Source: a virus (taxonomy: Duplodnaviria > Caudoviricetes). Taken from it: a stretch of DNA of 34,542 bases. Below, piece by piece: positions 170 to 34,542 of the stretch. Numbering within the stretch: position 1 is the stretch's first letter; the number at the start of each line of letters is the position of its first letter. The stretch is taken from IMG/VR virus record IMGVR_UViG_3300017589_000150, positions 1-34,542 of that record. One strand, given 5' to 3'. The translations under genes were made by a program, and so were the position numbers. Below the pieces are notes generated by a model. That model saw only the letters and a program-made list of their open reading frames with translations. It was not told the origin of the DNA and ran no database searches.

Positions 170-667
170 CACTGTCAGTATTACTTCCACCACTTAAGCT
201 ATATCACCAATTGTTGGGGAATTTTTAGCAAATAGGTATCTTTTCTCTTTGCTATAGATCCCTAGTAGACCTTATAACCATTTTTCATAATTCTAAGCAT
301 TGTAATTGCCAGTAACAGTAACCAATTTTGTTTAGGTTTTGTGGAGAGGGCACGGGGCCAAGCTAAAACAAGTATTAAGTTTGAGGTGGAGGTGCTGATG
401 TATGTTAATCAGATTCGTTCGTATAATACTAAAAAAGGGCCTAAATAACAGGAGCCTTAATTGTCCAGAAGCTACCAGAATACCCCAGTCTTTCTGGATA
501 AAATTACATTTATTACTATACAAGTTCCAAGAATATGATATTTATAAAGAGACAAACACACTTTAATTTTTCAATTGTGCTAAAAACTCAACAAATTAAA
601 ACATTTTATGGTAAGAATACAGATGTAATTTTATTATTTATGTTGTATTCTATTACGCAATAGGGAG

Positions 668-1282
668 GTGCTTCAAAAAATGATTATAAATAGAGAACAA
701 AAAATCAATAATGCAATTGCTTTTTTTGCTATTAAATTTCATTCTCGTTGTAAATATTGGCCCTCTCAGACGTGGATTTATAAGCTTCTTGCTTTTTTGG
801 ATCACAGAATATTGAAAAAAACTGGTATCCCCTGTTTAGGTTTGAATTATGTGGCCATGGAACTAGGCCCAGTTCCAACAGAACTATATGAAAACAGGTA
901 TAACCTTAAGAATGATACGTTTCATTTTGTTCCTATAGAAAATAAAATAGAAGTAATCGCATGTAAAGAGCCAGATCTATCTTATTTTTCTGACCTTGTT
1001 ATAGATGAAATGGAGCAGATCAGTGATGAGTTTATTTATTCAACAAAAACCTTACCTGAAACAATAGACGCGGCACATGAAGAAATAAGTTCATGGAAAA
1101 AGGCTTGGAAAATAGCACAAGAGAATGGTCGCAAAATGATGCTTATGGAGTTTAAAGATGAATTTGATACTGATCCATATTCAACCCAAGAAGAATTGAC
1201 TCCTCAGCAGGAAGCCTTTTTACGTTATGAAGGAATAAATGAACTTGAACTTTCAATTGGATCCAATGCAGAGAAGCCATGA
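668..1282 (+). CDS. Panacea (DUF4065/SocA-like) antitoxin
   Basis: YKLLAFLD..ILKKTG...LGLNYVAMELGPVPTELYE fits the Panacea motif; GGAGG nearby; ATGA overlap with the next gene. Confidence 0.85.
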   Translation: MLQKMIINREQKINNAIAFFAIKFHSRCKYWPSQTWIYKLLAFLDHRILKKTGIPCLGLNYVAMELGPVPTELYENRYNLKNDTFHFVPIENKIEVIACKEPDLSYFSDLVIDEMEQISDEFIYSTKTLPETIDAAHEEISSWKKAWKIAQENGRKMMLMEFKDEFDTDPYSTQEELTPQQEAFLRYEGINELELSIGSNAEKP

Positions 1283-1767
1283 TAATTGGGGATATCTTCA
1301 CATGGGACGATTTCCCGTTTCCCAAGAATGGTGCAATTAAAGATAGATGGTTTTTATATTTGGGTGAAGGTCATTCCGAGGGGGATGTTTTTGCTCCATT
1401 TGTTTCTTTTCTAAATACAACAACAACCCAGCTTTCTTATTACGAAGATGAAGGTGATCGTTGCCAAAATCTACATATTTTATTCAAAGAGTCAGACGGA
1501 TATGGATTTGAGAGAGATTCTATCTTAGATGTAGATCAGGATTTTTCATCTATTGATCATAATGTTTTCAAAGATGCCGAAACAAAAAATAAAATACTTA
1601 AAGTTGGGGCAATACCACACAGTGTTCTTAATAAAGTTTATTCTCTTATTTGTAAATCAAAGAATATTGACTGGATTGTTAAGAAAACGATACATGATAA
1701 TTTGTCAGCAGCAGGTATTAATGGATTATCATCTCTTCCTCCAAAACGAAGCTTTAAAATATACTGA
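1279..1767 (+). CDS. PemK/MazF-like toxin (putative PanT)
   Basis: GDIFTWDDFPF...KDRWFLYL, TTTQ and GFERDSILDVDQ resemble the PemK fold signature; coupled to the Panacea gene. Confidence 0.6.
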   Translation: MIIGDIFTWDDFPFPKNGAIKDRWFLYLGEGHSEGDVFAPFVSFLNTTTTQLSYYEDEGDRCQNLHILFKESDGYGFERDSILDVDQDFSSIDHNVFKDAETKNKILKVGAIPHSVLNKVYSLICKSKNIDWIVKKTIHDNLSAAGINGLSSLPPKRSFKIY

Positions 1768-10153: not shown

Positions 10154-10175
10154 AGACCGTCCCGAAGGACGGCCT
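10154..10175 (-). terminator. C(UUCG)G-loop hairpin, terminator-like
   Basis: GCCGTCC-TTCG-GGACGGT on the minus strand followed by a T-rich tract. Confidence 0.5.
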
Positions 10176-10898
10176 ATAAGTTGAATTTCTTTTTAAGATA
10201 TTCTTCGTTCTTTTGCTTTTCTTTCTCACGCGCTTTTTCAAGCTCATGTCTGCACTCATCGGAAAGCATATGTCCTACAAAGGCTCCGAGGTCTTTAAAT
10301 CTATGATCTTTATCCATAACATAATTTGTTATCGGCAAAAAGAAATGTCCGTAAAACAGGGTTTCCTGGTCTTTTCTCCATTGATAACCTTCCAGTAGCT
10401 GGTAAAAAGTGTATGGCTGCATCCGTGAAAATTCTTCCGGGGAGAGGTTCAATGCTCCGTAAGCCCAGGGTTCCGCCCAATCCAGCCAGTCCGCGAAAGA
10501 TTCTACTCGCTTTCCGGCGCTTGCGCGTTTGGGTCGTTTTTTTCTTCCTCTCCTTCTTTTGTGATTTTTCCCATTGCACGGTTAGCTGCTTCTTTTCCAT
10601 ATATGCCGCTTGCAATGATCGCACGCCCCAGTGCCATTTCAAGCGTTGAAATGTTGCCGTCTTTTTCAAGATATTCTTCTGTCATCTTCACATAATCTTC
10701 CGGAGTGGCATTGTGATAATGGTGAGCAAGTCCGACCTGACACGCCTGAAGCACAAAGACTATACCGGTCGCTCCGCCTCCTGCTGCCATCTTTGTGATA
10801 GTTGTTCCAGAGATTTTTTCGAGAAGTGCAAGGCGCTCTATATCGAAATAGACAAATTGATTAGGCGCAAAGAATTCAAAAGGGATGCTCTTTTTCAT
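10174..10898 (-). CDS. Tail assembly chaperone GT (-1 frameshift product)
   Basis: A AAA AAC at 10542-10536; the -1 frame is open (RPKRASAGKRVESFADWLDWAEPWAYGALNLSPEEF...) into ORF 10174..10452. Confidence 0.85.
10503..10898 (-). CDS. Tail assembly chaperone G
   Basis: Between major tail and tape measure genes; ends EEEKN..., typical of G proteins. Confidence 0.85.
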   Translation of the reverse strand: MKKSIPFEFFAPNQFVYFDIERLALLEKISGTTITKMAAGGGATGIVFVLQACQVGLAHHYHNATPEDYVKMTEEYLEKDGNISTLEMALGRAIIASGIYGKEAANRAMGKITKEGEEEKNDPNAQAPESE

Positions 10899-27304: not shown

Positions 27305-28240
27305 ATGGCGGAATCAAATAATACTGAAACTATGGCAGTATCCCAAGATAACGACCAATTGAAACTTGCTATTACTTACAACGGCGAAGCGGTTGAAAAT
27401 CATGAAATTGACCTTACTGAGTTTGCGCAGTCAATGCTCGGATTGTCCACAACAATACGTGGGGCCGGTAAATTTTTAGTAGGAAAAGATTATGATATAA
27501 ACTTAAAATTATCAGCAGTTGAAGGTAACTGTGTTACTTTTACTATTACGCTTAATGCTGGAGCTCTTATAGGCGGCACACTTTTATTCCTTGGAACATA
27601 TAGCTTACAAACTCTTGCAGAAAACATCGGATTCATATTTCATGGTGGCAAAGGGCTAATACAGTTTTTAATCCATCTCAAAAAATCTCCGGTAATTCAA
27701 ACAGAACAACTAGATAAAGAAATGACAAAAGTAACCTTTGCTGATGGTTCTATTATTGAGATCCCATATAAGGTATTTGAGATGAAGGATTCTGATCCAA
27801 TACGTAAGGGAATTTTTAAGTTTGTACAAATACTCTCAAAACAGGGATACGAAAATATTTCTGTCATGCAAAAAAATGTTACTGAATCAAAAAGCGTGAT
27901 TACGAAAGATGATGTCCCTGCCCTTGTTTATAGTTCACAAGATGAAGTAATCGAAGGTGAACTTAAAATTATAGGAGAAATTGATCGCCCTTCGCTTAAG
28001 GGTGAACGAAAAAACTGGATAGTTGTAGATGTTTCTAATGATGATAGCTATATAGCTACAATGAGAGATGATGCCTTTATGGAACGGATTGATAGAGGAG
28101 AATGTGAGTTTAGAAATGGGAACTTGTATCATGTTACACTTTGGGGTACTAAAACGACTAACCCTGTCGGAAAATCAAAATCAAAGTATGAAATTACTCA
28201 TATTGAACAAGTAACTAGCAATCAGAACATTTTATTCTAG
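27305..28240 (+). CDS. Accessory (moron) hypothetical protein, 311 aa
   Basis: AGGAGG SD, AT-rich, opposite to the lytic direction; NHEID..EFAQS.LG N-terminus, central hydrophobic segment, probable C-terminal OB-like beta domain. Confidence 0.8.
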   Translation: MAESNNTETMAVSQDNDQLKLAITYNGEAVENHEIDLTEFAQSMLGLSTTIRGAGKFLVGKDYDINLKLSAVEGNCVTFTITLNAGALIGGTLLFLGTYSLQTLAENIGFIFHGGKGLIQFLIHLKKSPVIQTEQLDKEMTKVTFADGSIIEIPYKVFEMKDSDPIRKGIFKFVQILSKQGYENISVMQKNVTESKSVITKDDVPALVYSSQDEVIEGELKIIGEIDRPSLKGERKNWIVVDVSNDDSYIATMRDDAFMERIDRGECEFRNGNLYHVTLWGTKTTNPVGKSKSKYEITHIEQVTSNQNILF

Positions 28241-28331: not shown

Positions 28332-28359
28332 CAAGCCCGGTATTCGATTGTCATGGTGC
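28332..28359 (-). repeat. Right 28-bp inverted repeat
   Basis: Reverse complement GCACCATGACAATCGAATACCGGGCTTG. Confidence 0.85.
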
Positions 28360-28374
28360 GTGGAGATTTATTCC

Positions 28375-28859
28375 CTAGCCTTTACTCCCTACCGTTTCCA
28401 GCAGTTTTTGGCATGTTCTGACGCTTTCTTTTACCCTGTCTATCCATTGCTGGGTGATTTCTTCGTCCGGGTTGCCGTCGGCGCAGTCTTTAACGATCAG
28501 TGCTATTTCCTTTGGTTCGTCGGCCAGTTCATTTGCTTCCCTGACGGATTCCATAACATCGACAGCCCGGAGCAGAAAATCTTTTGGATCACAACTTAAG
28601 CTGTTTTCTTGTCCCCCTGCTCCGCTTGCAGCTCGGCAGGGGGCGGAGTAGGGTTTGCTTCTTGCAAAACCTTATAAAGCTCTCCTCGTTCAAGATGTAA
28701 GACATCTTCAAGAGCTGCTATTTTGTTTGCGTCTGTAGGCGGATATTTGCCAGATTCCCAGTCGTAAACTGCTGATCGAGATACGCCAGTTTTATCTGCA
28801 AGTTCTCCTTGAGTAAACCCAGCTTTTTTCCTGAGATCACGAATATATTGCGAGTACAC
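28375..28859 (-). CDS. Predicted 161-aa Cro-CII-like fusion via -1 frameshift
   Basis: A AAC CCT heptamer at 28656-28650, 6-nt spacer, 8-bp GC stem; -1 frame open to TAG at 28377-28375. Confidence 0.6.
28596..28859 (-). CDS. cro: Cro-like XRE HTH regulator
   Basis: LRKKAGFTQGELADKTGVSRSAVYDWESG; divergent from cI; GGAGG SD, GTG start. Confidence 0.9.
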   Translation of the reverse strand: MYSQYIRDLRKKAGFTQGELADKTGVSRSAVYDWESGKYPPTDANKIAALEDVLHLERGELYKVLQEANPTPPPAELQAEQGDKKTA

Positions 28860-28890
28860 TTTTACACCTCCCTCTTAATTGCTTTGCTTA

Positions 28891-28948
28891 CTACGCATTA
28901 TATGCATAATATTTCAATTGTCAAGTAAACTACGTAATAATTGCGTAG
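28891..28948. promoter_or_regulatory. Immunity switch: lytic promoter with two 19-bp operator candidates
   Basis: Minus-strand TTGACA (28924-28919), 16 nt, TATAAT (28902-28897); CTACGTAATAATTGCGTAG at 28930-28948 and CTACGCATTATATGCATAA at 28891-28909. Confidence 0.7.
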
Positions 28949-29008
28949 CAGGCAAATATTGATAAAAAATGTCATTGAATGTAGAGTTCACTATGAAGAG
29001 GTGAATTA

Positions 29009-29818
29009 ATGCGTAAAGGTGACGAAATCCGTCTGTTACGAAAGAAATTAAGATTAAGCCAAGAAGGGTTAGCTAATCTTATAGGAGTGTCGCGTTCTGC
29101 TGTCTATGACTGGGAGAGAGACGCATATTCACCAGAAGGCGAAAACCTTATAAAACTTGCTAAGGCACTAAATGTTTCTGCGTCTTACCTCATGGGCGAA
29201 ACAGACGACCCAACACCAAAAACCAGGCTTTATGAAAAAATAGAAACACATGAAGCTCTTCACGAAAAAATAATTCGTAACGGCAAGGAATATTCAGCTG
29301 ATGACATTGCTAAAAATCCTAATTTAGGACTGCCGATAGAAGAAAAATCCAACGTTCGATCAGGCAGTAAATTTCTGGAGATCCCGCTTCTGACAATGGC
29401 TACTGCTGCTTCGTGCGGTGCAGGAAATGGTCTTTATGGAGTGATCCCGGAATCCACTGAAAATATCTTCGTGGAAGCCAGCACCTTCAAATGCCTGGAC
29501 GACACAAGAAAGCCGTTCGCCATTCCCATAGAAGGCGACTCAATGACAGGCGCGGGACTTGAAGAGGGAGCGAATGCAGTAATAAATCCGGCGGAAGAAG
29601 TTATGAACGGGGACGCAGCGCTTATATCCTGTGACGGTGACTGGCTGATTAAATGGGTAGTCTACAATCCTGACGGAAGTGTCGACCTCAAACCGGCCAA
29701 CCCGAACTACAGCCCCCGACATATTGAGTCCGCTTATGCATCCGATCCGTCATGGTTCCGTGTCATTGGTAAAGTAGTCAGAGTAGTCCGTATTTCCAAC
29801 CCTAAACGAGCATTCTAG
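29009..29818 (+). CDS. cI: CI-like repressor (XRE HTH plus S24 autoprotease)
   Basis: N-terminal HTH, CGAG cleavage region, GDSM Ser, LIK Lys, PANPNY. Confidence 0.95.
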   Translation: MRKGDEIRLLRKKLRLSQEGLANLIGVSRSAVYDWERDAYSPEGENLIKLAKALNVSASYLMGETDDPTPKTRLYEKIETHEALHEKIIRNGKEYSADDIAKNPNLGLPIEEKSNVRSGSKFLEIPLLTMATAASCGAGNGLYGVIPESTENIFVEASTFKCLDDTRKPFAIPIEGDSMTGAGLEEGANAVINPAEEVMNGDAALISCDGDWLIKWVVYNPDGSVDLKPANPNYSPRHIESAYASDPSWFRVIGKVVRVVRISNPKRAF

Positions 29819-29843
29819 CCCCTGCTGTTGCAGGGGTATTTTT
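29819..29843 (+). terminator. Intrinsic terminator after cI
   Basis: CCCCTGC/GCAGGGG stem followed by TATTTTT. Confidence 0.7.
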
Positions 29844-30138: not shown

Positions 30139-33006
30139 TTGAAGGAAGGCTTAATAATGATTTTTAATAGCATCTTTTCAAGAAAATATTCCTCTTGGGT
30201 GGAGTTAGAGACTGCAATTGAGGCAATTGAGACAGCAAAAGAAAAAGGTACTGCCTTTGAGCAATTTGTCTTAGCCTACTTTACATATTTTAAAAATATG
30301 TATTTGATCTCTGAATTGTATATAGAAAGTTCCATTCCTTTAGAGTTGCGCAAAAAAGTTAAATTGGAAAAACGCGACAGTGGCGTTGACGGCTTGATCG
30401 TAAAAGAAGACGGAACTACTGTCGCATATCAAGCTAAATTCAGAAGTGGTCAGATAGCGCCTTCCTACGATGAATTAACCTCATTTTGGGCTGAATCTGA
30501 ACATGCGGATGAAAGATGCATTATTGCTAACTGTTATGAGCTTCCACAGCAGGCTTACAAAAAGAAAGACCAGTTTTTTATTTTTAGAAATGAATTAAAC
30601 AGTCTTGAGCCTAACTTTTTCGAATGGTTATATACTTTTGCAACAACAGGTTCAACCGAACCCAATGTTTCAAGATATGAGCCAAAGGATCATCAGTATA
30701 AAATGATCTCTGAAGTTTTAGAAGGATTTGTAACAGAAAAAAGAGGAAAAATGCTTGCTGCATGTGGTACCGGCAAGACTCTTGCGGCTTTATGGATAAA
30801 AGAAAGTTTGACGGCCCAAAATACTTTATTTGTGGCTCCGAACCTTGCCCTTATAAAGCAAACACTAGAAGCTTGGATGCAACAAGCAAAAACACCATTT
30901 ACTTATCTTTGTGTATGTAGCGATGTAACAGTGGCAGAAAATGCAAACCCCTTAGAAAATGATGATTTTCAAACAGATGCGTCATATATTGGTGTTCCTG
31001 TTACTACCGATTCGGAAAAAATCCTTGATTTTATTATGTTTGAATCACCAAAAGATAAGGTTATATTCTCAACCTATCAATCACTTGATGCTATTGTCGG
31101 TGCATTAGAGAAATTTGATGGATTTAATTTCGATATCTCATTCTTTGATGAGGCGCACAGAACAGCGGGTAATAAAGATACGCAAATGTTTATTATGGGC
31201 ATGAATGATGCTTTTATACCATCGAAAAAGAGATTGTTTATGACCGCAACTGAAAGATTTGTTAATCCTCGTATTGTTGGTCGTGCCCATGAGTACCACT
31301 ATGAAGTTTTTTCAATGGATAACTATGAGCAATATGGCCCAACATTTACTTCACTTCCTTTTAGGTCTGCAATAGAGCAAGGAATAATCAGTGATTATAA
31401 AATTGTTCTTTGCTGTATGAAAGAGGGGGAACTTAAAAGTATTATAGACAACAATTTAATTCTGAATATTGGAGATAGAGAAGTAGACGCCCAAAATCTG
31501 TTTAAACAGGTCCTCCTAGCTAAAACCATGAATGACATTGGTATTCGCAAAGCTATTTCATACCACCGAGATATTAATTCCGCTAAGCGGTTTATATCTT
31601 CTACTAACAGTACAAATTTAAATGAGGTAATATCTGGTATCACTGATGATATTATTGTGTCTGATGTGTATTGTGATCATATTAATGGTACTATGTCAGC
31701 TGGGGCACGAAAAGGAATTTTTGATGAATTCATTACTGCTCCCTATGGTGTTATTTCTAATGCAAGATGTTTGACCGAGGGCATTGATGTCCCCATAATA
31801 GATGCTGTATATTTTGCAGATCCTAAAAACTCTATAATTGACATAATACAAGCTGTTGGACGTTCCTTAAGAAAGGTGAATAATCAAGATAAAATCTCTT
31901 ATATTATTATTCCAATAATTATTGCTGATGAAATTTCCAATTTTGAGGATATAGATCCCGAAAATTTCAGCACACTTCATACCGTTGTACAAGCATTAAG
32001 AGATCAAGACCGAATTTTAGCTGATTATATTGATAAGCTTAACCTTAAGCTCGCGACAGGAGAAAGGCCCACTGGTGGTGAAGATGGAGATTCCCCATTA
32101 ATTATTGAAGCAACTGAGCAACTAGGCATTGATGACATTGCCGGTAAAATTCTGTTGAGAGTTGCTGAGGTAAACCGCGATCCTGCTAATATTTCTCGAG
32201 AATTTATTTTCGAGCCAAGATCTCGTACATCAGGTGTTGAGCGAGGAGATTTCACTACTGTTGGAGACTATAATCTTGATTCCTATTGGAAATCTTGCGT
32301 AATAGCAACTTTACAAAAATATGATTCCTTTGATGTTGGTCTTCCTCATACAGCTATCGTTATTGACCACAATAATGTTTCTCACGCTGTTAAAATAGGA
32401 GCTATAATTGAAAAGGAACGCAAATTTTATGTTACTGAAGTTGGTCTCAGACTATTTGAATGCTCCTCATTTGAAGAAGCAGCCCCAATATTCCAAGAAC
32501 AACTATTAAAGTTTTATAAACTTGCGGCTATTACACGCTTCCCACATTTCCCATACCGGTTTGCGCTTAAGGTGTTAGCTCAAGTAGGTAAAATCTCAAA
32601 ATTTGAATTTGCTTATTCAATGTTTATTGCAAAAAACTTAGGAAATCGCGGCGTTAGCGAAGCTTGCGAAAAAATCGCGTACTTAATGGATACCTATCCT
32701 CGTATTGAAACTTTAAGTGATGCCAATAAAGAAATAGTCCTAGCAGCACTTAATGAAAAATACGACACCACTCTAAAATTAATTGATATCTGGACTTCGA
32801 GGACAACCCTTTATAACCAATTCAATTACTTAAAGAAGCACCTTACAATATGGCCGGGAGTTACTGTGGCTGGAGCTCCAGAAATAATGCTTACCACTAA
32901 TGGAGCGGAAAAAATAAAAGAGCTTCTTCAAAAAACAAATGAAATAGAAACCTGTCCTATGGATAAACTCAGATCGAACTTTATTAATTCCAAGGATTGG
33001 CTTTAA
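30139..33006 (+). CDS. Mrr-like nuclease-SF2 helicase with a C-terminal putative DNA-recognition domain
   Basis: KGTAFE, DSGVDG, YQAKF; ACGTGKT, STYQS, DEAHRT, MTAT, CLTEGIDVP, QAVGR; start may be ATG 30157. Confidence 0.88.
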   Translation: MKEGLIMIFNSIFSRKYSSWVELETAIEAIETAKEKGTAFEQFVLAYFTYFKNMYLISELYIESSIPLELRKKVKLEKRDSGVDGLIVKEDGTTVAYQAKFRSGQIAPSYDELTSFWAESEHADERCIIANCYELPQQAYKKKDQFFIFRNELNSLEPNFFEWLYTFATTGSTEPNVSRYEPKDHQYKMISEVLEGFVTEKRGKMLAACGTGKTLAALWIKESLTAQNTLFVAPNLALIKQTLEAWMQQAKTPFTYLCVCSDVTVAENANPLENDDFQTDASYIGVPVTTDSEKILDFIMFESPKDKVIFSTYQSLDAIVGALEKFDGFNFDISFFDEAHRTAGNKDTQMFIMGMNDAFIPSKKRLFMTATERFVNPRIVGRAHEYHYEVFSMDNYEQYGPTFTSLPFRSAIEQGIISDYKIVLCCMKEGELKSIIDNNLILNIGDREVDAQNLFKQVLLAKTMNDIGIRKAISYHRDINSAKRFISSTNSTNLNEVISGITDDIIVSDVYCDHINGTMSAGARKGIFDEFITAPYGVISNARCLTEGIDVPIIDAVYFADPKNSIIDIIQAVGRSLRKVNNQDKISYIIIPIIIADEISNFEDIDPENFSTLHTVVQALRDQDRILADYIDKLNLKLATGERPTGGEDGDSPLIIEATEQLGIDDIAGKILLRVAEVNRDPANISREFIFEPRSRTSGVERGDFTTVGDYNLDSYWKSCVIATLQKYDSFDVGLPHTAIVIDHNNVSHAVKIGAIIEKERKFYVTEVGLRLFECSSFEEAAPIFQEQLLKFYKLAAITRFPHFPYRFALKVLAQVGKISKFEFAYSMFIAKNLGNRGVSEACEKIAYLMDTYPRIETLSDANKEIVLAALNEKYDTTLKLIDIWTSRTTLYNQFNYLKKHLTIWPGVTVAGAPEIMLTTNGAEKIKELLQKTNEIETCPMDKLRSNFINSKDWL

Positions 33007-33010
33007 ACCA

Positions 33011-33054
33011 AACTGCCGCAGTTGAGTCATATCAATAACTCGTCTGCGGTAGTT
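33011..33054. terminator. Hairpin between the convergent helicase and MTase genes
   Basis: AACTGCCGCAG/CTGCGGTAGTT arms. Confidence 0.5.
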
Positions 33055-33056
33055 TA

Positions 33057-34394
33057 TTATTCTTTTACTAATTCTACTATGCTTTCTCTTAACACATTTT
33101 TCAAATATGGAAAACGTTGCAACTGCTGAGCCGATGTTCGGCACTTCCTGCATTCTATGATACTTTCCACTTTAAAGCCAACTTGCTCAGATAAATAAGC
33201 TAACAACAAATCAGTCGGTACTATAACACCAACATACGCAGATTGATCGATCACAATATATGTTTTTTTACCCTTTTCCAAACAGAGCCCACACTGCCTA
33301 ATTATCTCTTGCATGTCAGAAAAATATCCCTTAATCATATTTGGTACTTTTCTTGTCCTCGAGTCCTTTTTACCAGTCTTAGCTTCCTTTTCTGGAATAG
33401 CCTTATGTATTTCCTCTGCAATAATATTTATATATTTATCAGATTCTTGTTGTTCCTTTACACCTATAAATGACCTAACTGCTTGCTGTCTAAAATCGTT
33501 AATGCCTTTGATATTAGCAGCAAAATCACCAAATACAAGTTCTAATTTATATGATTCAAAATAATCAAATGAATTTGGGTATGGGGGAGAAAAAATAATC
33601 GTTCCAACCTTTAAATTTTTTGATCCTTTATACTGCTTATATATTTGATATAAGTTTGTAGCACTGTCAGCGATACATTCTCCTTTTCCGATTAGATTAC
33701 ATGATGTAGTTTCTAAATCGTTCAAAATCTCCATTGCTTTTTTAATAAAGGTGTCTCTTACATCTGAGACCTTTGTGCTCACGGTCTTTAATCCATTGCC
33801 ATCTCTTCGACGGTTAGAACAAGCCTCAATAATACACAGGAATGCTGTCATTAGAATTGACTGCGTACTTATATCATCTACACCGTCTATATAATCTTTC
33901 AAACCACATAGCACCTCGAAATTCATTGGCTTGAAATATTTTTTTATACCATCATATTTATTCCTGTTAGATATATTAACTTCAGGCAAATTTCTCACTA
34001 TGCTTTTGCATAATTGCAGCTCTCTTCGTGTGCAATGTTGCATCTTAACATTAGCTATAAACGCTGATAAAGGGTTTACGTCAATACCCAAACCGTTGTA
34101 TCCATTAAGAACAGCAACCATTGGTGTCGTCCCAGAACCACTGAAAGGATCTATTATTACTTCATTCTTAGTGGCACCAGAATCACTGATTAGCTCCTTT
34201 ATCAAGTTGCCGGAAAAGCCTTCTCGATAGCGAAACCATTGATGGAATGGTACGTTCTCGTTTTCGGAAAAATTAACTGAGTTACAATATTCAGATGACA
34301 TATCTTTAATTTCATATCGACATTCTAACTGCAGAATAAATTGTTGCAAATCCTTATTATCGTATATCTGTCTTTCTTTAAGAAGTTCTTTCAT
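33057..34394 (-). CDS. DNA methyltransferase, alpha class, probably N4-cytosine
   Basis: HQWFRYREGFS, motif I DPFSGSGTT before motif IV SPPY; likely start ATG 34394 after AAGGAG (ORF extends to 34427). Confidence 0.9.
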   Translation of the reverse strand: MKELLKERQIYDNKDLQQFILQLECRYEIKDMSSEYCNSVNFSENENVPFHQWFRYREGFSGNLIKELISDSGATKNEVIIDPFSGSGTTPMVAVLNGYNGLGIDVNPLSAFIANVKMQHCTRRELQLCKSIVRNLPEVNISNRNKYDGIKKYFKPMNFEVLCGLKDYIDGVDDISTQSILMTAFLCIIEACSNRRRDGNGLKTVSTKVSDVRDTFIKKAMEILNDLETTSCNLIGKGECIADSATNLYQIYKQYKGSKNLKVGTIIFSPPYPNSFDYFESYKLELVFGDFAANIKGINDFRQQAVRSFIGVKEQQESDKYINIIAEEIHKAIPEKEAKTGKKDSRTRKVPNMIKGYFSDMQEIIRQCGLCLEKGKKTYIVIDQSAYVGVIVPTDLLLAYLSEQVGFKVESIIECRKCRTSAQQLQRFPYLKNVLRESIVELVKE

Positions 34395-34398
34395 AGCA

Positions 34399-34542
34399 TT
34401 AATGCTCCTTAATAACCCATTTTTCATTAATGTAATTAAGCTTTTTCTTTAACAAGTTATCTACATAGTCATCAGAATATGTTTCAACCTTAAGCATTTC
34501 CTCTTTGTTGTCTATATGCTCTACAATATATGCCATAAGCAC
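34399..34542 (-). CDS. 3' end of an unidentified gene directly upstream of the MTase
   Basis: Open frame from the window edge: VLMAYIVEHIDNKEEMLKVETYSDDYVDNLLKKKLNYINEKWVIKEH*; stops 4 nt before the likely MTase start. Confidence 0.65.
   Translation of the reverse strand: MLMAYIVEHIDNKEEMLKVETYSDDYVDNLLKKKLNYINEKWVIKEH

Follow-up and report, generated by a model that had tools for sequence, protein, structure and literature searches.

Which proteins are made from the cro gene of this prophage: the Cro repressor alone, or also a longer form reached by a -1 change of reading frame? The question arises in a stretch of DNA of 34,542 nucleotides (IMG/VR record IMGVR_UViG_3300017589_000150; hereafter the window), which is a whole prophage-like contig with ORFs of terminase, portal, capsid, tail, replication, and antirepressor type. 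A preliminary description, made from the letters alone, had read in cro a programmed -1 frameshift that would give both Cro and a CII-like regulator from one gene. Homologues of the domain downstream of cro that carry names belong to Synergistaceae, Cloacibacillus, and Dethiosulfovibrio, together with one MAG record labelled Paludibacter and one labelled Bacteroidia; public sequencing runs contained at most 10% of the window's words and gave only contigs of relatives.

The cro gene and its surroundings in the window

In the window, cro (28596–28859, minus strand; 0 frame, 87 aa, with the HTH at residues 6–60 and a Pro-rich tail) is an HTH_3 gene divergent from a cI-like repressor gene (HTH_3 and Peptidase_S24; 29009–29818, plus strand), as expected of a Cro-type gene, and the recognition helix GVSRSAVYDWE is identical in the two proteins. 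A strong SD precedes cro (28865–28872, minus strand; -12.2 kcal/mol), and a sigma70-type, pR-like promoter that would point toward it was found by consensus match (28897–28924, minus strand; 12/12). Imperfect direct and inverted repeats around this promoter (28883–28956), weak at 74–87% alike, are candidate CI/Cro operators.

On the other side, a consensus scan marked a terminator-like hairpin 3' of cI (29818–29837, plus strand), whose arms, CCCCTGC/GCAGGGG, are common to it and to the frameshift hairpin described below (28613–28643). Beside cI, convergent genes for a ResIII/helicase/AlwI-like endonuclease and an N6/N4 methyltransferase (30139–34427) form a restriction-modification-like pair. 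Elsewhere in the window, a SocA/Panacea antitoxin-like gene (668–1767, plus strand) is followed by an overlapping unknown ORF, probably a toxin-antitoxin pair.

A candidate -1 frameshift signal in cro

The cro gene holds a single in-frame X_XXY_YYZ heptamer, A_AAC_CCT (AAACCCT; 28650–28656, minus strand), which stands in 0-frame phase within the overlap of the two frames. It is followed by a 6-nt spacer, ACTCCG (28644–28649, minus strand), and by a stimulatory hairpin predicted from folding and comparison (28613–28643, minus strand; arms CCCCCTGC at 28643–28636 and GCAGGGGG at 28620–28613, loop of 15 nt). The -1 frame is open from 28671 to 28375, and a tandem slip at the heptamer would join 70 codons of cro to a -1 frame extension of 91 codons (28375–28650, minus strand), giving 161 aa; in the extension, a disordered linker leads into a domain of three predicted helices, in which a D-x2-3-G-x2-D turn is conserved. 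The heptamer, spacer, stem arms, and open -1 frame all lie where the preliminary description had placed them.

As a measure of chance, among the 5499 codons in 12 long ORFs of the window, AAACCCT occurs in frame once and any heptamer of the form XXXYYYZ 34 times. The window hairpin itself is only moderately above chance when 91 nt are considered (z -1.28; 25 of 200 shuffles as good), with z -2.7 when only the 55 nt that follow the heptamer are taken, and a search of Rfam over the cro region gave no match.

Heptamer and frame offset in relatives

Loci were collected by viral, metagenome, and genome scans together with 268 Synergistota genomes, and L001–L109 and the window were searched with two HMMs, one of the domain alone and one of the HTH. 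The 67 distinct domain hits were classed; after removal of eight without an upstream HTH (cut contigs, remnants, and one spurious hit) and of a second remnant in L072, 58 distinct Synergistota-type HTH plus domain units remained. Fifty of these have the domain in the -1 frame with an in-phase A_AAC_CCT, seven are in-frame fusions, one is noisy (L003, an indel-ridden copy of L002 with two single-base indels), and none is in the +1 frame. Set aside were a chance match (L037), a spurious one (L091), the HTH-less remnants L020, L021, L023, L026, and L054, and the contig-cut L007 and L013, both with the heptamer in phase. For about half of the 50 loci, the query included the heptamer or the KPY that it encodes, and the 50 are related to each other; among loci with an HTH that were reached by domain-only queries, and thus blind to the heptamer, 25 of 26 have the in-phase heptamer and the -1 offset. 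Median pairwise identity is 25% for Cro and 25% for the domain, with 27 Cro clusters at 50% identity and 10 domain clusters at 45%, nine of which contain shifted loci. A viral scan that began from the motif gave 72 hits (54 distinct), of which 11 follow an HTH; in each of these 11 the motif stands in the 0 frame, and in 10 it goes with a -1 ORF of at least 60 aa. One locus (L162) keeps heptamer and hairpin with a -1 frame of just 21 aa. The common layout recurs in five weaker genome hits that scored under the domain cut-off and were not counted (L084, L086, L087, L090/L102, and L105).

The bases that flank the heptamer vary among the 50 loci (-1 position: C 27, G 8, A 8, T 7; +7 position: A 44, C 6), and a C located 7 nt downstream of it is invariant (50/50), opening a stem of lineage-dependent sequence. 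The 0 frame ends 3–33 codons past the heptamer and the -1 frame runs for 74–118 codons (53 in one cut contig); in most loci the -1 frame is closed shortly upstream of the heptamer, and in L012 a -1 stop immediately precedes it. The signal in the window is therefore beyond chance by virtue of its conservation, in 50 of 58 units and in 25 of 26 of the heptamer-blind subset. An alignment of related prophages, the check that had been proposed for heptamer, stem, and frame break, thus finds the arrangement conserved far beyond the window contig, and the comparison strongly supports both the -1 frameshift reading and its two product sizes of 87 and 161 aa. Judged by this comparison, it is a phylum-wide putative recoding signal in cro of Synergistota prophages.

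Some loci depart from the common layout in other ways. In L026 (OY821326.1) the domain is intact, cro is absent, and the heptamer has decayed to AAATTCT, the signal being lost along with the HTH. L079 (G239:C2:82541-83675) and G033:C1:1083021-1087172 each hold two to three neighbouring HTH/-1-domain units, and in L072 (G148:C41:24262-24739) the -1 ORF is directly followed by what remains of a second domain, of the fused clade and without a start codon.

The hairpin in relatives

A hairpin starts 6–7 nt past the heptamer in the relatives also, within the 5–9 nt usual for a stimulatory structure, and its sequence changes between loci. The 55-mers downstream of the heptamer reach z<-2 in 31 of 50 loci, compared to 4 of 50 upstream controls, and the other 19 fall short of that threshold. 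In 23 distinct close relatives, 87% of the hairpin cells pair, compared to at most 62% for slid registers and controls. Pairs changed on both sides number 5 of 12, a count within the shuffle range (33/500), and the RNAalifold consensus is weak (-3.7 kcal/mol). Column counts over the loci showed no conserved upstream SD stimulator.

The -1 frame and the internal start codon

About 40 database clusters call a separate 59-aa protein here, starting from an internal ATG (MESV...; 28552–28554, minus strand). As noted previously, this ATG is without a recognisable SD (-2.5 kcal/mol, compared to -9.3 to -12.2 kcal/mol for four other starts). It is kept in 21 of 22 loci of the window's clade, so some independent initiation is possible there; it is ACG in L015 and absent in other lineages, some of which have GTG or TTG codons near the domain start. 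Overall, 12 of the 50 -1 ORFs are without any ATG, and 14 are without any ATG, GTG, or TTG up to 15 codons into the domain. Between the cro stop and the ATG lie 12 codons, in which the first, second, and third -1-frame positions vary in 2, 4, and 9 columns, respectively (16 distinct sequences); by this pattern the stretch before the internal ATG appears to evolve as -1-frame protein. Since start codons are absent in 14 of 50 loci and the constraint begins before the ATG, separate initiation cannot be the general rule. The offset has a conserved direction and the -1 frame is under coding constraint without a start of its own, as expected of a -1 frameshift.

The added domain and its natural fusions

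AlphaFold predicts the -1 extension as a disordered linker and three helices (residues 24–44, 48–60, and 66–89; pLDDT 75), the first of which begins 11 residues ahead of the internal Met; for a natural fusion the HTH is predicted well, the linker is loose, and the helical domain comes with low confidence. Searches with the added domain returned no match in Pfam or PHROG, only designed helical proteins among PDB sequences, and no viral or PDB structure at E≤0.001 with Foldseek, and nothing usable came from the VIA fold search (best Z 7.2), the ESM Atlas (≤0.80), or GenBank phages.

A first search for longer homologues (168–2000 aa) yielded nothing, and a search at 40–200 aa gave the fusions. 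Homologues of the -1 ORF joined in frame to an HTH, which the preliminary description had suggested looking for, make up 9 of 63 profile hits. Those of Cloacibacillus are well attested (WP_302805101.1; cluster members on 20–98 contigs), and the singletons P0049–P0051, each from a single short contig, are possibly artefacts of assembly and count for little as fusions. The seven fused genomic loci form a further clade. On the tree, the fusion state requires at least four changes on well-supported branches, a single origin is rejected (AU p = 0.001; 28-row subset), and the window's own 22-row clade includes no fused allele. Uninterrupted fusions in relatives had been named as an observation that would speak against a frameshift; such fusions do exist, but they are recurrent derived alleles beside 50 shifted loci and none is in the window's clade, and they therefore support the long product rather than a one-off indel. 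Having arisen more than once, the fusions also argue that the long form is a real protein. From their distribution, the fusion is evidently a protein kept by selection, some phages apparently make only the fusion, and the short form appears to be dispensable in those phages.

Character of the long form

We compared what the long form shares with Cro and with CII. Among loci with a divergent ORF, this ORF matches the window cI in 40 of 44 shifted and in 6 of 6 fused cases. Over an 11-residue recognition segment, the Cro proteins of 36 shifted pairs match their cognate CI at 7.5 residues compared to 3.8 for non-cognate CI, and those of five fused pairs at 7.6 compared to 4.4 (0 of 5000 shuffles in each case), the pairs not being fully independent. 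By the proxy of recognition-helix identity (7.5 vs. 3.8 of 11), operator specificity is thus shared with the cognate CI. A CII-type regulator would have its own HTH, distinct from those of CI and Cro, in a separate gene after cro; here the Cro HTH is shared.

The same -1 frameshift could instead produce a CII-type activator of repressor establishment that opposes the short Cro, with the extra domain re-spacing the HTH pair onto a different site. We consider this possible, if somewhat unlikely. It would fit the window in that no separate cII-like HTH gene is seen between cro and the antirepressor gene, and the D-x-x-G-x-x-D turn of the domain resembles the C-terminal domains of CII-like regulators. 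It could also appeal to phrog_6499, a transcriptional regulator family that spans residues 12–145 of the fused L082; yet the domain alone matches this family at only E 0.17, and its hits over 61 genomes cover just the HTH except at one fused locus. Likewise, the match to phrog_4836 ("CII-like") covers mainly the HTH, and the domain has no match among CII families or folds by Pfam, PHROG, PDB sequence, Foldseek, or VIA, searches in which short helical domains are easily missed. A consensus scan, which activator-dependent promoters would escape, showed no leftward promoter in or after cro, and the motif behind the gene (see below) matches rRNA-operon sites and is not evidently an establishment promoter. 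Most directly against an activator, the fused alleles stand alone opposite cI (6 of 6 with sequence) and have CI-matched recognition helices, and must therefore do the job of Cro; a fused allele alone in the cro position with CI specificity most simply would act as Cro. The label "CII-like" given to the product at the outset is accordingly not borne out: neither sequence nor fold searches connected the domain with CII, and the recognition helix goes with that of the cognate CI, fused alleles included, for which reason the long form is more likely a Cro-type repressor. Provided that recoding takes place, we therefore regard the long form as probably of Cro type rather than a CII-type activator, and its architecture suggests that the added domain probably oligomerises it.

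A boxA-like motif behind the long ORF

Fifteen nucleotides past the stop of the long ORF lies a 19-nt motif, GCACCATGACAATCGAATA (28341–28359, minus strand), that resembles boxA of rRNA operons. It is present behind the long-ORF stop in 24 of 49 shifted loci, in 0 of 46 control stretches, and in 0 of 7 fused loci. Near-identical copies occur about 35 nt before 16S in L111, L115, and L116 and 18 nt before 23S in L114 and L118 (5 of 10 loci scanned, in three Synergistota genomes). These are leaders and spacers of rRNA operons in the host phylum, where an rrn-type boxA would lie, and the motif is called boxA-like on account of this position. A leftward promoter and a 7-aa ORF were considered in its place and rejected, as the peptide is not conserved and the motif matches the rrn sites. 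By position, it is a candidate NusB-NusE site.

In phage lambda, boxA lies in nutR, behind cro. The window resembles the lambdoid cI-cro-nutR-cII region in the divergent cI and cro, the matched recognition helices, and a boxA-like site directly behind the cro gene; unlike that region, the site follows the -1 ORF and not the 0-frame stop, and a separate cII is not seen. Because the motif is placed behind the -1 ORF, this ORF is marked as the end of the cro unit, and the idea arises that shifting might affect read-through past the motif.

Just behind the motif, on the opposite strand, lies a moron-like gene (phrog_3243, DUF7946-like; 27305–28240, plus strand), whose insertion slot differs among relatives. 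In G002:C1 (e.g., 467113 and 468657), the boxA-like 19-mer occurs several times in inverted pairs about 1.5 kb apart, which are probably IS ends.

Proposed mechanism and alternatives

We propose that a -1 frameshift yields two Cro forms, the 87-aa one abundant and the 161-aa one minor and extended by a predicted three-helix domain, an explanation that as a whole we hold to be likely; that the long form is made by recoding at the A_AAC_CCT heptamer is very probable on the comparative evidence. The hairpin would make the ribosome pause while AAC occupies the P site and CCU the A site; tRNA-Pro(GGG) would re-pair from a wobble contact with CCU to a perfect one with CCC, an improvement under standard wobble rules, while tRNA-Asn would slip from AAC to AAA. 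Reading would resume at UAC, leaving the junction ...EANP-YSAPCR.... Having the same HTH, both forms would bind the operators of CI, and oligomerisation of the long form through the added domain would probably make it a tighter or cooperative Cro-type repressor, so that the shift rate would fix the short-to-long ratio in the lysis-lysogeny switch. With one search pattern, a tRNA-Pro(GGG) was found in two of the five Synergistota genomes probed.

Three explanations dispense with ribosomal slippage at this heptamer. If no frameshift took place, a separate small protein would be translated from the internal ATG or a weak start by reinitiation and would bind Cro or CI in trans, and heptamer and hairpin would serve another purpose, e.g., as a pause or processing site. 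The 59-aa calls in some 40 clusters, the ATG kept in most of the window's clade, and the GTG/TTG codons near the domain start elsewhere would agree with this, but we find it very unlikely given an ATG that has no SD and is ACG in L015, 14 of 50 loci without a common start, coding constraint upstream of the ATG, and a predicted helix that begins 11 residues before the Met; furthermore, the offset is always -1 and never +1, which separate genes would not require. The change of frame might also come about by RNA polymerase realignment, by single-tRNA slippage on the C-run (CCC CCU), or by a +2 hop. A C-rich run does lie 6–7 nt past the heptamer in nearly all loci, and C_CC.Y tetramers shift in E. 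coli (PMC4066793). Against these routes, which we judge highly improbable, there is no long homopolymer; the C-run, which forms the 5' arm of the hairpin, is variable, whereas the heptamer is in phase in 50 of 50 loci; and the shift only ever goes in the -1 direction, which Antonov et al. (PMC3711429) connect with ribosomal and not with transcriptional shifting. The chance that the break is a one-off indel, an assembly error, or a pseudogene of a fused regulator is negligible: relatives with in-frame fusions exist, but the same break and motif in 50 distinct loci and nine domain clusters already refute it by conservation.

A stronger version of the CII-type alternative would place a Cro/CII pair in one gene, the shift making part of the lytic repressor, with its HTH unchanged, into an oppositely acting establishment factor and its rate also tuning early-operon read-through; we think it unlikely. 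Under it, shifted ribosomes would stop 10–20 nt before the boxA-like site and unshifted ones would leave about 240 nt of bare RNA, which is how the shift rate would tune read-through, and ribosome slippage itself would then be the dial of the lysis-lysogeny decision. As for the frameshift that would make two Cro forms, it appears, throughout a bacterial phylum, to be an integral part of the genetic switch, and that it has outlasted wholesale exchange of the HTH implies that the ratio of the two regulator forms is under selection. This heptamer class scores low in frameshift predictors, and in pipeline annotation the extension comes out as a hypothetical protein of 59 aa in its own right. The 60-nt cassette, the natural fused alleles, and the named hosts (Cloacibacillus porcorum and Dethiosulfovibrio) make the proposal directly testable.

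Comparison with known recoding systems

To our knowledge, programmed frameshifts in phages come almost only from structural genes. As to the heptamer, Sharma et al. (2014; PMC4066793) report for E. coli that CCN A-site codons are weaker shifters on average and that C_CC.U and C_CC.C tetramers shift with a pseudoknot; with the IS3 pseudoknot, 61 of 64 heptamers shift above background, and the three failures are A_AA.C_CC.A, G_GG.C_CC.A, and C_CC.G_GG.C, which do not include A_AA.C_CC.U. The initial caution that CCC is atypical and efficiency possibly low is in line with this source, in which A_AAC_CCU falls outside the highly efficient E. coli class (V_VVA_AAR, H_HHU_UUY, and the like). Compared to the bacterial -1 frameshifts of IS3-family elements and dnaX, as covered there, the Synergistota cro has the same in-phase heptamer, GC-rich hairpin 5–8 nt downstream, and overlapping -1 ORF; it differs in a CCU A-site codon, weak in E. 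coli, in place of A_AAG or U_UUY, in being a phage switch regulator gene, and in that no conserved upstream SD is seen.

The mechanism is of a known kind, and its use to make two forms of a switch regulator was not found in the open-access literature searched (PMC and bioRxiv). The initial statement that no case had been described stands to that extent, with the qualification that a -1 shift in a cro gene is known from Lactobacillus phage A2 (Escobedo et al., 2014, as cited in PMC5009743 and PMC10885494). That shift shortens Cro by 12 aa upon expression in E. coli and is apparently irrelevant in L. casei; unlike the Synergistota case, it adds no domain, and its account in PMC5009743 reports no conservation. 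PMC5009743 also describes msi172-msi171 of a Mesorhizobium ICE, in which recoding likewise builds a transcription regulator of a mobile element, the activator FseA, from two ORFs, but by a +1 shift and for ICE excision rather than a -1 shift in a phage immunity region. In Streptomyces phage Hau3, recoding is also proposed to bear on lysis versus lysogeny, there through UUA bypassing in the terminase controlled by tRNA supply and here through a -1 shift in the switch protein itself (PMC10732093). The table of PMC3711429 lists only two Synergistetes genomes, and the family may be among the GeneTack clusters of that study.

A phage parallel in product layout is the tail chaperone pair G/GT, also a phage gene with a short major and a C-terminally extended minor product at a set ratio; it is structural, in contrast to the early DNA-binding regulator described here (PMC10885494 and PMC5009743). 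A_AAC_CCT occurs at such a position in an unrelated phage, and the window phage has a candidate G/GT site of its own. In the former (L213; IMGVR_UViG_3300050014_000293, 388–917, minus strand), a 108-aa ORF is connected through A_AAC_CCT and a hairpin with a -1 ORF that has no start codon, and the pair is flanked by a tail-tube-like and a tape-measure-like gene, a G/GT-like position by gene order; these ORFs gave no family hits. In the window, the candidate G/GT tail-chaperone -1 site is A_AAA_AAC (10542–10536, minus strand), which joins the ORF at 10898–10503 to an open -1 frame ending at 10174.
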